Shown here piece by piece: positions 1 through 32,200 of a stretch of DNA of 64,000 bases. This stretch comes from Chrysomallon squamiferum (taxonomy: Eukaryota; Animalia; Mollusca). Within the stretch, counting starts at the first letter, position 1. Each line of letters opens with the position of its first letter. The stretch spans positions 17,360,001 through 17,424,000 of the forward strand of contig CM022675.1 in assembly GCA_012295275.1 (NCBI GenBank), in the 5' to 3' direction. Below the pieces are notes generated by a model that was given only the letters and a program-made list of their open reading frames with translations, did no database searches and was not told the DNA's origin. The position numbers were made by a program, and so were the translations under genes.

Positions 1-3000
1 TAAGCTCGAATTCTGCTTCTGCTTGGCCCTAGAAGAGAACAAATAAATCGAATATTAGTAAATAAATATTTTAATACTAAAAATATACTTATCCTTTTGC
101 TACAACAGATTTATCTAAAATGTAAAAATATTCTTTGTTATATTCATTTACTGCTATTATTTTCTCAAATGTTAAATCTGTATTTCCATTAGCCTCGCCA
201 TTTTAAAAATTATTTTCATTTTATCATCATTGTCATCATCATTATTATTATGATTACTATTATTATTATTTTTATCATCATAATTATTATCATTATAATC
301 ATTATATTTACTTCTGTGACGTCGATGTCTTCTCAGCCAACGTCTCCACCATCTCTCTCTTCCTATAAACAGTAAAAATAAAACAACTCGTGTGAGAGTG
401 TATATCTCTAATTATGTTTTCAGTTATTCATTATTTTCTTTCATTACAATTATAATTACAAAAGTTTTAGTAAACAACATACTAACCTCGACCACGATGT
501 TTTCTCAGCCATCTCCTCCAATATTTTCCACCACCTGAAATCATTGAATATCAATATTCTTAACTTTCTTTATCCAACTAAATTTACTAGTTGTCGTGCA
601 AAATGGCAATACAGTGGTCATAAAACATAAAGAAAAATTCAGTTCTTCTTCTTCTTCTTCTTCTTCTTCTTATTATTATTATTATTACTAATTTATTTTC
701 TCGATGTTGGTGATCTTGTTCATATTGTTACTATTGTTATACACATGGGAAAATTATAATTATATAAATATCCTAATTTTCATAATATCCAAAGATTTAA
801 GCTAACTGAAGTACCATAATTCTTTATTAGGGAAAAACACACAAAATTATACTAACGTCTGTAAGCTCGAATTCTGCTTCTGCTTGGTCCTAGAAGAGAA
901 TAAATAAATCGAATATTAGTAAATAAATATTTTAATACTAAAAATATACTTATCCTTTTCCTACAACAGATTTATCTAAAATGTAAAAATATTCTTTGTT
1001 ATATTCATTTACTGCTATTATTTTCTCAAATGTTAAATCTGTATTTCCATTAGCCTCGCCATTTTAAAAATTATTTTCATATTATCATCACTGTCATCGT
1101 CATCATCATCATTGTTATTTTTATTATTATTATTATTATTATTATTATTATTATTATTACCATTATTATTATTATCATCATTATAATTATTATATTTACT
1201 TCTGTGATGTCGATGTCTTCTTAGCCAACGTCTCCACCATCTCTCTCTTCCTATAAACAGTAAAAATAAAACAACTCGTGTGAGAGTGTATATCTCTAAT
1301 TATGTTTTCAGTTATTCAATATTTTCTTTCATTACAATTATAATTACAAAAGTTTCACTAAACAACATACTAACCTCGACCACGATGTTTTCTCAGCCAT
1401 CTCCTCCAATATTTTCCACCACCTGAAATCATTGAATATCAATATTCTTAACTTTCTTTATCCAACTAAATTTTCTAGTTGTCGTGCAAAATGGCAATAC
1501 AGTGGTCATAAAACATAAAGAAATATTCAGTTCCTCTTCTTCTCCTTCTTCTTCTTCTTTTTATTATTATTATTATTATTACTAATTTATTTTCTCGATG
1601 TTGGTGATCTTGTTCATATTGTTAGTATTGTTATACACATGGGAAAATTATAATTATATAAATATCCTAATTTTCATAATATCCAAAGATTTAAGCTAAC
1701 TGAAGTACTATAATTCTTTGTTAGGGAAAAACACATAAAATTATACTAACGTCTGTAAGCTCGAATTCTGCTTCTGCTTGGCCCTAGAAGAGAATAAATA
1801 AATCGAATATTAGTAAATAAATATTTTAATACTAAAAATATACTTATCCTTTTGCTACAACAGATTTATCTAAAATGTAAAAATATTCTTTGTTATATTC
1901 ATTTACTGCTATTATTTTCTCAAATGTTAAATCTGTATTTCCATTAGCCTCGCCATTTTAAAAATTATTTTCATTTTATCATCATTGTCATCATCATTGC
2001 TATTATTATTATTACTATTATTATTATTTTTATCATCATAATTATTATCATTATAATCATTATATTTACTTCTGTGATGTCGATGTCTTCTCAGCCAACG
2101 TCTCCACCATCTCTCTCTTCCTATAAACAGTAAAAATAAAACAACTCGTGTGAGAGTGTATATCTCTAATTATGTTTTCAGTTATTCATTATTTTCTTTC
2201 ATTACAATTATAATTACAAAAGTTTTAGTAAACAACATACTAACCTCGACCACGATGTTTTCTCAGCCATCTCCTCCAATATTTTCCACCACCTGAAATC
2301 ATTGAATATCAATATTCTTAACTTTCTTTATCCAACTAAATTTACTAGTTGTCGTGCAAAATGGCAATACAGTGGTCATAAAACATAAAGAAAAATTCAG
2401 TTCTTCTTCTTCTTCTTCTTCTTCTTCTTCTTCTTATTATTATTATTACTAATTTATTTTCTCGATGTTGGTGATCTTGTTCATATTGTTGCTATTGTTA
2501 TACACATGGGAAAATTATAATTATATAAATATCCTAATTTTCATAATATCCAAAGATTTAAGGTAACTGAAGTACCATAATTCTTTGTTAGGGAAAAACA
2601 CACAAAACTATACTAACGTCTGTAAGCTCGAATTCTGCTTCTGCTTGGCCCTAGAAGAGAATAAATAAATCGAATATTAGTAAATAAATATTTTAATACT
2701 AAAAATATACTTATCCTTTTCCTACAACAGATTTATCTAAAATGTAAAAATATTCTTTGTTATATTCATTTACTGCTATTATTTTCTCAAATGTTAAATC
2801 AGTATTTCCATTAGCCTCGCCATTTTAAAAATTATTTTCATATTATCATCACCGTCATCGTCATCATCATCATTGCTATTATTATTATTACTATTGTTAT
2901 TATTATTATCATTAGAATTATGATATTTACTTCTGTGATGTCGATGTCTTCTTAGCCAACGTCTCCACCATCTCTCTCTTCCTATAAAACAATAAAAATA

Positions 3001-29200: not shown

Positions 29201-32200
29201 ATGTGTGTGTATATATATATATATTTATATATATATGTGTGTGTGTGTGTGTGTGTGTGTGTATATATATATATATTATTTATTTACTTAACTTTGCACG
29301 AAAAAGAAGGAATTATAATTTTCTGAAATATATATTTGTATTTACTACTAACCTCGACCACGATGTCTTCTCAGCCATCGCTTCCAGTATTTGCCACCTC
29401 CTAAAATAACAAAACTCTTTTTGTTTCTTTACTTGTATGTGAAGCTAAATTAATTTATTAATTAATTTGTTTGTTTGTAACAAATGGAGAGACAATTGTG
29501 GAGAATACCATTTGAATTTCACGAATATGTAAGATTGTTTTATATTAACGAAGAAAGAATACACTTTTGATACGTCTTAAAGGTTTCTATCACTAAACAA
29601 TAATGGAAAATGATGTGATACTGTGAACAGCTGCATGTATATAATGTATGCTAAATTTTTATTTTCTCTTTATTAACTGTTTGTATTAAAACAAATGATT
29701 AATCATGCCCAATCCAAAAAAATATTAACATTAAATACACTCACGTCTGTATGCTCGAATTCGACTTTTTGCTTGGTCCTGTTGAGAAAACAAATTGTGT
29801 AAAGAAATGTAAAAGTGGAAAATGTATTTGTAAACAAATTTAGAAAAAGTAACTTATTCGCATGTATACAGCCAGACAGAGGAAAAGATAGAATATCAGA
29901 CAGAAATATATAAAGAGACAGACAGACAGAGGGAAAATTGAGCTGTCTGGTTTTGCCTTAATTGAAAAGAAAATTGTAAACGTCTATCAAATTTCAGTCT
30001 AGCGGCAGTTTCAGGACCATTGCCCCTTTTTAGTATATCTTAAATAGTAAAAGACATTTCAACATTTCTATGGTATCAAACTGAGCGATATTTATAGGAC
30101 GCGACAATGCATCATGATGCGAATTGCCCTCTATCAACATTAGAAATCATGATGAGAAATTTCATATATTCTAATATTTAATTTTCTTTTTTTACTTATG
30201 ATTTTATTATTATTATTATTATTTGCGAAATATTTTACTTTATATCTGATTCCTTTTCCTTCATTACCGATTGTCAGTAAGATTCATTTCACCTTTGCGA
30301 TGGCTATTCCTTAACAGATCCTATTTCTATTACTGTAACCTTTTGACTTCTAGATTTTTTTCTCAACCCTGGAATAGTTCTACCGAACACCAGGGCCCAA
30401 TAACGACCGCTTTGCAGATACCTACTCTACACAGAGTATTCTGAAATCACAGACTTACTGACCACACAGACATATTCAGATAACAAAGGTATACAGCCTA
30501 CACAAACCGATTAAGATATCATAGAGATGATGTCTAGACAATAATATTTATATATCTTTGAAGTACTGCCTATACAGGCGACTTTAAAATTCAGATACTA
30601 CTGTTTACAGAGACGGATCTAAAAGTAACATATGTATATGTATATCAGCTAGTCTTTATATTTCCTACTTAATCAGGGATACAATTTATTATAAAAATTC
30701 TTTCTTTTTTGTGTGTGTGTAAATGTGTGTGAATGTGTTTGTGTTAGTTTCTTGAAATACAGAAAGAAAACAAATGTTGATAAAATGTGCGGTGAGATAA
30801 AGGTATAGTAAATTTCCTTTGTGTTTTCCTTTTATGAATTGTATGTAACATAATATATTAGAGCCGCATCCGTAACTGTCGGAAAACTTATTCTTGTTAT
30901 GTTCTGTGTTAGAGGAGATTAATGACTTACTTCCACGTCTTCCGCCTGAAATGGTAAGATTGAATAAAATATTTTCTTTACACATTTAAAAAATTGTATC
31001 AACGCGATGTAGAAATGGAATTATTGGAATTAAAGGTTTTCATATTATAAAAAGAAGTTAAATATGAATGTATATAATTAAATATATTTCCGTTAAAAAA
31101 ACAAGGTTTCAAAGAAAAAAATATATTCTCTTTTCTGAAAGCAAATGGTACCGAGTAAAATAGTGTCCGTTTACCTCTGCGTCCGCGGCGGTGTCTTATC
31201 CATTTTATCCATTTTATCCACCATCGTTTCTCTTCCTGAAATACGATTATTACTTTTGTTCTTAAACCTTTTCATATACACATGTATATTAATATTAAAT
31301 TATACATTGCACACGTCCACATACACACATTTTGATGTGTATTAGTTTCTTGACACACTCTTACCAAAGACATTGGAAGAAACTATAATTCTATTTCAAA
31401 TTAACACGTTCAAATATATATATATAGATATATATGTGTGTGTGTGTGTGTGTGTGTGATACTTAGCTTATATATATATATATATATATATATATATATA
31501 TATAAAATTTACTTTTTTCATTTACTTAACTTTGCACGAAAAAGAAGGAATTATAATTTTCTGAAATATATATTTGTATTTACTACTAACCTCGACCACG
31601 ATGTCTTCTCAGCCATCGCTTCCAGTATTTGCCACCTCCTAAAATAACAAAACTCTTTTTGTTTCTTTACTTGTATGTGAAGCTAAATTAATTAATTAAT
31701 TAATTTGTTTGTTTGTAACAAATGGAGAGACAATTGTGGAGAATACCATTTGAATTTCACGAATATGTAAGATTGTTTTATATTAACGAAGAAAGAATAC
31801 ACTTTTGATACGTCTTAAAGGTTTCTATCACTAAACAATAATGGAAAATGATGTGATACTGTGAACAGCTGCATGTATATAATGTATGCTAAATTCTTAT
31901 TTTCTCTTTATTAACTGTTTGTATTAAAACAAATGATTAATCATGCCCAATCCAAAAATATTAACATTAAATACACTCACGTCTGTATGCTCGAATTCGA
32001 CTTTTGCTTGGTCCTGTTGAGAAAACAAATTGTGTAAAGAAATGTAAAAAGTGGAAAATGTATTTGTAAACAAATTTAGAAAAAGTAACTTATTCGCATG
32101 TATACAGCCAGACAGAGGAAAAGATAGAATATCAGACAGAAATATATAAAGAGACAGACAGACAGAGGGAAAATTGAGCTGTCTGGTTTTGCCTTAATTG

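Follow-up and report, generated by a model that had tools for sequence, protein, structure and literature searches.

The stretch of DNA analyzed here, hereafter the window, comprises 64,000 nucleotides (nt) from the mollusc Chrysomallon squamiferum (GenBank assembly GCA_012295275.1, contig CM022675.1, positions 17,360,001 to 17,424,000) and consists of AT-rich animal DNA, with a GC content of 22–36% per kb and many microsatellites. An exon inventory of the window returned 94 exons on the minus strand, i.e., exon 1, E2–E7, five D, 27 C, one divergent C, 27 A and 26 B exons, as well as one B exon of 61 nt. These at least 94 phase-1 exons form a single gene, which starts with an ATG at position 39132 and runs off the start of the window; as the array of repeated exons continues past that point, this extent represents a lower bound, and no stop codon or terminal exon was found for the gene inside the window. 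The product is predicted to be a secreted, very long polycation rich in Arg, Trp, Gly and His, which we tentatively read as a cohesive structural material of the foot or of the scale-forming epithelium.

Exon 1 (39069–39132), which occurs as a single copy in the window, carries the ATG and a predicted signal peptide, judged by eye as a basic residue followed by approximately 17 hydrophobic residues, and ends in phase 1. It is followed by E2–E7, which were placed by hand: E2 (37666–37683, 18 nt), the likely signal cleavage region, is bounded by AG and GT, has a length divisible by three and is open in phase 1; E3 (37190–37213) measures 24 nt, or 21 nt with an alternative donor; E4 (35938–35964, 27 nt) is Tyr/Glu-rich and open only in phase 1; E5 (35253–35300, 48 nt) encodes Tyr, Lys, Glu and Gly; E6 (34900–34923) comprises 24 nt; and E7 (33782–33865, 84 nt) is Arg/Ser/Lys-rich in phase 1. 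A protamine-like sperm nuclear protein was rejected as a candidate product, given that an in-frame signal-peptide exon heads the chain.

The remaining exons constitute the array. Four D-C-A-B units and a fifth D exon (25162–33176; D 15, C 33, A 48 and B 54 nt) are followed by seventeen C-A-B units of 44 residues each, with one Trp/Arg core per A and per B exon (9228–24710), and by six further C-A-B units (312–5246). The last B exon of the seventeen-unit block is cut to 45 nt (9272–9228), and this shortened exon precedes a 4-kb interruption of the array (5247–9227), which holds the divergent C-like exon of 36 nt (8094–8129). Two possible terminal exons, noted by eye near positions 8526 and 7248, raise the question of a shorter isoform or of the end of a first gene copy; a second gene start within the 5.3–9.2 kb gap was ruled out, as no copy of E1–E7 lies there. 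All exons after exon 1 have lengths that are multiples of three, with two exceptions, i.e., the B exon of 61 nt (31175–31235), which breaks the frame as assembled and represents either an assembly error or a true lesion, and a C exon of 34 nt (29745–29778), which contains one extra base in a run of A and is likely an assembly error.

The array has grown by repeated tandem duplication. Identity between the units at 11545 and 10671 reaches 99% with their introns counted, and the first two D-C-A-B genomic units, of 2.2 kb each, are 97% identical, again including introns, while other neighboring units share 69–97% identity over aligned bases.

The earlier note on this DNA, made from the sequence alone, had described A and B exons that each encode an amphipathic Trp/Arg nonapeptide core, within 312–31638, and had proposed a polyprotein precursor of antimicrobial peptides. 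The cores are indeed present, with 53 intact copies encoded by 27 A and 26 B micro-exons, and the span proved exact, as the first A exon occupies 31638–31591 and the last B exon 362–312. A six-frame search located Trp/Arg cores on the minus strand only, with all 53 intact copies in 1–31700, none in 31701–64000 and none in 30 base shuffles. The four cores named in that note account for 23 of the 53, i.e., YWRRWLRRH (five), WWRRWLRRH (nine), WWIRWIRRH (seven) and WWIKWIGRH (two). Their hydrophobic residues follow the described pattern at positions i, i+1, i+4 and i+5; the resulting amphipathicity is, however, only moderate, with 7–16% of shuffles of a core's own letters matching its helical hydrophobic moment for 13 of the 14 core variants, while the remaining variant is matched by 40% of its shuffles. 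The gene itself is larger than had been noted, as its first exon starts at 39132, it includes C and D exons as well, and no stop exon was found in the window.

The canonical dinucleotides are present at every splice site (AG at 93 of 93 internal acceptors, GT at 94 of 94 donors). Since the majority of A, B and C copies are free of stops in two frames, the reading frame was tested. Phase 1 is free of stops across all 80 copies (27 A, 26 B and 27 C), while phase 0 meets a stop in every A and every B copy, and phase 2 meets stops in three A, four B and six C copies. Furthermore, the ratios of synonymous to non-synonymous variant codons in phase 1 are 15:9 for A, 6:13 for B and 8:6 for C, whereas the other frames yield at most four synonymous variants. 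The Trp/Arg reading in phase 1 is therefore the correct one, since it alone is open in every copy and since synonymous variants concentrate there. The phase-2 reading, which is used by most of the published gene model discussed below, was rejected on account of the stops in 13 of the 80 copies. In phase 0, E6, E7 (33782–34923), D and C are strongly acidic and resemble a propeptide or spacer, probably as a by-product of AGA-rich codons. This acidic reading was likewise rejected, as E4 and all A and B exons contain stops and C variants are 0 synonymous to 18 non-synonymous, although it may be used by an isoform with a shifted frame that terminates at the first A exon.

When the two exons of irregular length are left out, the other 92 join without a stop into a protein of 1,294 residues. 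Its repeat part (1,198 residues) consists of 39.4% Arg, 12.1% Gly, 11.0% Trp, 6.8% Lys and 5.1% His; Arg and Lys together make up 46%, and the net charge amounts to +526. The protein model contains no Cys and one Met. Acidic residues are balanced by basic ones in E2–E6 (seven of each) and are limited to one Glu per 44 residues in the repeats, and the motif W-x-x-W is present in all 53 cores. No Pfam family was found at cut-off for three exon-bearing pieces, i.e., exon 1, E7 and one B exon with its flanks.

The repeats are under purifying selection. Over the 22 regular units, the ratio of non-synonymous to synonymous differences (pN/pS) is 0.36, and exons are 89–92% identical compared to 57–75% for flanking intron, these values being descriptive, as the units are related copies. 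Such conservation, together with the canonical splice sites at all 94 exons and the absence of a phase-1 stop in 80 copies, renders it very improbable that the locus produces no long protein, whether as a tandem repeat that is degenerating or does not code, or as an artefact of the assembly. What speaks for that explanation are the two frame-breaking exons, the first of which (31235–31175), as assembled, gives a stop after 174 residues, and the 4-kb interruption with its shortened B and divergent C exons. The extra base of the C exon, at 29766, is nevertheless missing from an independent contig of sequencing run X1 that overlies it, and run X1 contains the locus as DNA; the 61-nt B exon is spanned by none of the long X1 contigs listed. 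The X1 contig over position 29766 has a depth of 436, and X1 contig depth over the D-C-A-B unit (26340–33176) ranges from 362 to 436 against ~50 in unique flanks, which suggests more D-C-A-B units than are assembled, although contig depth is not a copy number. Several copies may have been collapsed in the assembly, or copy number may differ between individuals. Among the joints listed for three RNA runs over 24000–39400, no exon joins were found, which provides no evidence on expression, and no RNA data set was listed as containing 33100–39400.

The earlier note had pointed to Gly followed by basic residues as a convertase and amidation signal; Gly and two basic residues do follow 16 of the 26 B cores but are missing after the other ten. 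A more regular candidate is the linker between A and B exons (Gly, then R-E-R, then the Trp of the B core), which is the most conserved stretch of the unit, with a pN/pS of 0.04 and synonymous changes tolerated. The sequence G-RER-W is found at 24 of 26 sites, the other two carrying one R/K change, and its Glu, the sole acidic residue of the unit, is invariant. In each of the 22 regular units, a dibasic pair (RR in 21, KR in one) also precedes the A core by three residues. Where B joins C, the residue after a basic run is Pro in every one of the 22 regular units, and a Pro in this place prevents convertases from cutting the bond. Conservation is weakest in the B tail (pN/pS 0.7), and the cores take intermediate values (A 0.44, B 0.62) with a single variable position each (R, V, A or T in A; R or I in B).

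Dibasic pairs inside the cores, which the earlier note had recognized as an obstacle to predicting cut sites, occur in 51 of the 53. Overall, 151 dibasic pairs are observed, i.e., fewer than the 256 expected from composition, and 80 of the 151 lie inside cores; full dibasic cleavage yields fragments with a median of five residues. Complete convertase cleavage would thus destroy the cores, since 51 of 53 hold such a pair. Cutting at the R-E-R linker gives 41-residue pieces (21 of 25 inner pieces) with charges of +16 to +22. Processing of the chain, should it occur, would likely yield peptides of 15 and 25 residues or units of 41 residues, and not bare nonapeptides.

These features bear on a serious contender, though one to which we give the smaller share of belief, namely an antimicrobial polyprotein, selectively cut, that would keep microbes in check on the foot and where the scale base grows. 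Cuts after the RR preceding A and on both sides of R-E-R would release ~27 amidated A peptides of 15 residues and ~26 B-C peptides, whereas cleavage confined to R-E-R would yield ~26 amidated peptides with two helices and ~40 residues each. The signal peptide, the 53 moderately amphipathic cores with one variable position each, the conserved linker with its invariant Glu, and the mostly 41-residue pieces that R-E-R cuts produce are all in keeping with such a precursor, as is an amidating lyase among the scale-high genes. Furthermore, the linker meets the definitions of the processing quadruplet motif (PQM) and the inverted PQM (iPQM) given for spider antimicrobial precursors in PMC6832493, scales are reported to bear dense epibionts (PMC12383625), and, by analogy, cationic repeat fragments of skin structural proteins are described as microbicidal in PMC6399351. 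The internal dibasic pairs argue against it, as does the lack of any acidic spacer or propiece to offset +18 per unit, where apidaecin-type and spider spacers contain Glu. Moreover, the Gly-basic-basic signal fails after ten of 26 B cores, the pN/pS of the cores gives no sign of diversifying selection, unambiguous PQMs are described as rare outside spiders (PMC6832493), and five ‘convertase’ labels among scale-high genes are unreliable, one belonging to a gene that the paper itself names as a chitin-binding peritrophin-A paralogue. The antimicrobial proposal is thus partly supported, by predicted sites: the signal-peptide exon, the conserved linker and the putative cut sites at exon junctions stand on one side, the internal dibasic pairs and missing acidic spacers on the other. 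A neuropeptide precursor was rejected in view of the micro-exons and the lack of the uniform Gly-Lys-Arg ends typical of such precursors.

The same chemistry, including the W-x-x-W motif in all cores, fits molluscan structural secretions equally well. We consider it slightly more likely than the antimicrobial polyprotein, while still short of an even chance, that the gene encodes a cohesive structural secretion, as we judge a very long, uniform and unneutralized polycation with one motif per micro-exon to resemble a bulk material slightly more than a precursor of defence peptides. The absence of acidic spacers and the dibasic pairs within 51 of the 53 cores are also counted here, since features expected of a peptide polyprotein are thereby missing. 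The signal peptide would route the protein into the secretory pathway; with its net charge above +500, the protein would have to be condensed with polyanions for storage there. W-x-x-W is reported as the motif for C-mannosylation in the endoplasmic reticulum in PMC6954052, and the cores may be C-mannosylated or hydroxylated, as in the mussel foot protein Pvfp-1, for which mannosylated hydroxytryptophan and cohesion by cation-pi bonds are described (PMC4275877, PMC12721214). The Trp modification of Pvfp-1 is reported to block nearby proteolysis, and such a modification would also shield the basic pairs of the cores from proteases. After release, cation-pi contacts between Arg and Trp, together with aromatic contacts, would hold chains to one another and attach them to beta-chitin fibres, and His and Tyr could take part in metal or oxidative cross-links. 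The scale is described in PMC9156901 as ~5% beta-chitin, the other ~95% being not chitin, unidentified and probably protein, and it is reported to form by secretion. The chain may also be clipped at the conserved G-RER-W linker into ~41-residue units, in which case shed fragments could be antimicrobial as well; a defensive side effect would be compatible with a structural role, and the two roles could coexist, as with hornerin fragments by analogy.

The assignment of this locus to published gene models bears on where the protein might act. The repeat of the gene matches C. squamiferum model CsqKR_Scaf143_18.30 in the low-complexity repeat row of the supplement to PMC7142155, the sole entry of the model there, where a B-C-A unit of 44 residues is listed at residues 454–587 in 3.05 copies. 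In this model, residues 20–427 follow phase 2 and leave out most B exons, while 454–587 follow phase 1, and both the signal peptide and the 5' exons are missing. As most of its residues are thus in phase 2, which is excluded by stop codons, the published model is largely wrong. A second model, 18.32, is a UDP-galactopyranose mutase located 20 kb upstream of the gene and ties the locus to the model series; it is published as mantle-high in the tables of PMC7142155.

Because 18.30 lacks the 5' exons, these must be covered by some other model or by none. One further model, 18.29, carries the number next to that of 18.30, and its presumed position depends on the order in which the annotation program presumably numbers its models. 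This model could be the 5' piece of the gene, separated where the frame breaks, given that 18.30 is without those exons and that no repeat is listed for 18.29; alternatively, it may be a separate gene beyond the start of the window. We put the chance that 18.29 is the 5' part of the present gene at about one half. In the tables of PMC7142155, 18.29 is unannotated, appears on the novel-gene list and has a mean of 65,911 in the scale-secreting epithelium compared to 2,910 elsewhere (fold change 5.3, false discovery rate 0.048), this mean being the highest in the one of twelve table parts examined and 39% of that of the top scale gene (167,023).

Several observations weigh against a structural protein of the scale or foot. 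Firstly, 18.29 has a syntenic partner, ctg1027-2.6, with a hit score of 220, in the scale-less Gigantopelta aegis (PMC7895826 supplement), and no G. aegis protein with the present cores or signal peptide was found in searches with the repeat profile and the exon 1 query, which together fits 18.29 as a separate neighbor. Secondly, none of the tissue-high tables searched contains 18.30, although this model certainly shares sequence with the array and reads from the array should reach it. Thirdly, five motifs of the protein were not found in the four searchable scale proteome supplements, although this absence says little, as these files use other gene identifiers, one of them is incomplete and the proteins were digested with trypsin. 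In addition, the strongest conservation falls on a linker that resembles a cut site, and exon junctions fall at the putative cut sites, which is what a peptide precursor would predict, while the alpha-amidating lyase noted above is 2.2-fold elevated among scale-high genes. Finally, no homologue of known function was found, in what were weak searches.

The silence of the expression tables also bears on an explanation that we regard as unlikely, i.e., a secreted polycation with another purpose, such as pedal mucus or adhesive, operculum or periostracum, the packaging of eggs or sperm, or a gland in which sulfur anions and polyanions are bound. Any condensed secretion would be consistent with the composition and the signal peptide. 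Moreover, the lists for scale, mantle and oesophageal gland do not include 18.30, and the tables with returned rows comprised neither a foot-high nor a gonad list. The locus is nonetheless situated among scale- and mantle-high genes (18.29 and 18.32), on a chromosome that is dense in them, and no expression data point to such a tissue.

Returning to the structural secretion, published scale proteomics probably would have missed such a protein, since only three of the 552 peptides from an in silico tryptic digest reach at least seven residues and since the gene model is mis-framed. One informative tryptic peptide lies near the N-terminus and spans E3–E5. The scale proteome indeed relied on trypsin, and the acid-insoluble matrix gave no identified protein (PMC11871041). 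The gene may therefore have escaped notice through the combination of wrong-frame annotation and near invisibility to trypsin-based proteomics.

Homologue searches returned no relative. A profile of 22 translations from the window found no homologue among 5,478 candidates of 80–2000 residues, and the same profile gave two matches at E ~3e-4 among 1.84 billion representatives, both to unrelated repeats; the profile retained all 45 columns of its flanked first sequence and was thereby diluted by intron, and the queries were single exons. The 40-residue exon 1 query returned three candidates, none of them a homologue, and an Atlas search gave no usable match. Five core and linker motifs were absent from the main texts searched, with the exception of one unrelated paper, and four were absent from ten G. 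aegis supplements. Furthermore, no molluscan precursor of many Trp/Arg peptides was found in the literature, on the basis of one strict-term search, which is weak evidence of absence. Restriction of the gene to a particular lineage is a plausible conjecture.

Upstream of the gene, the mutase mentioned above is encoded by an intronless gene on the minus strand (58756–60972), with its best match in G. aegis (69%). Its product has a hydrophobic N-terminus and a weak C-terminal match to DUF3431 (E 0.002, below cut-off), and its other matches are mostly metagenomic, bacterial and protist, plus one brittle star; judged by these matches, the sequence suggests horizontal acquisition. A second, partial mutase catalytic region lies just downstream of the main mutase gene (58342–58611, minus strand; Pfam GLF, E 2.6e-24) and represents a local duplication or an assembly echo. 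The interval from exon 1 to the mutase yielded no conserved gene, as only one of 101 open frames had a Pfam match, to a mutase fragment. An open frame at 56089–56376 (minus strand), which lacks Pfam support, resembles by eye what we take to be a remnant of the C-terminus of a long interspersed nuclear element (LINE) reverse transcriptase, and a purine-rich, degenerate tandem repeat with a period of ~33, ten copies and strong GC skew is located at 52288–52612 (plus strand).

The nature of the non-chitin 95% of the scale, and the retention of sulfur there, constitute an open question, and the gene described here offers a concrete candidate, which existing data and standard methods would have missed. 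Should the protein be cut into peptides instead, between 26 and 53 Trp/Arg peptides would derive from one natural polyprotein, whose spacer of three residues would be unusual. Under either reading, the published model calls for correction.

Regarding known systems, the closest entry is CsqKR_Scaf143_18.30, which describes the same locus and differs from the present gene by its phase-2 reading, its skipped B exons and its lack of a signal peptide. Profilaggrin has a structural role in vertebrate skin, while profilaggrin and hornerin are intracellular, Trp-poor and unrelated in sequence to the present protein. The likeness to them is by analogy: they are structural proteins built from repeats, whose cationic fragments are described as microbicidal in PMC6399351. 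The precursor of bee apidaecin and the complex precursors of spiders (with PQM/iPQM spacers) share with the present protein a signal peptide, tandem and nearly identical cationic units (27 here) and a conserved Glu-containing linker; the present protein, however, has no acidic spacer beyond one Glu, contains internal dibasic pairs and displays no homology to them. Molluscan matrix proteins with repetitive low-complexity domains are likewise secreted, with tandem biased repeats and no globular domain, and are lineage-restricted, as the present protein may be, whereas the present protein is strongly basic, Trp-rich and Cys-free, is encoded by one micro-exon per motif, and was in no searchable hard-part proteome. 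Finally, the mussel proteins Pvfp-1 and Mfp-3 are molluscan foot secretions that, like the present protein, contain cationic together with Trp or Tyr residues, and modified Trp in Pvfp-1, hydroxyarginine in Mefp-3, and the combination of cationic residues, Trp and hydroxyarginine in Mfp-3 are reported (PMC4275877, PMC12721214). No match to a mussel foot protein was returned by the homologue searches, the queries being short or diluted by flanks, and the likeness is thus one of composition, with no sequence homology shown; the present protein is dominated by Arg and not by Lys, and it is far longer than Mfp-3 (~6 kDa).

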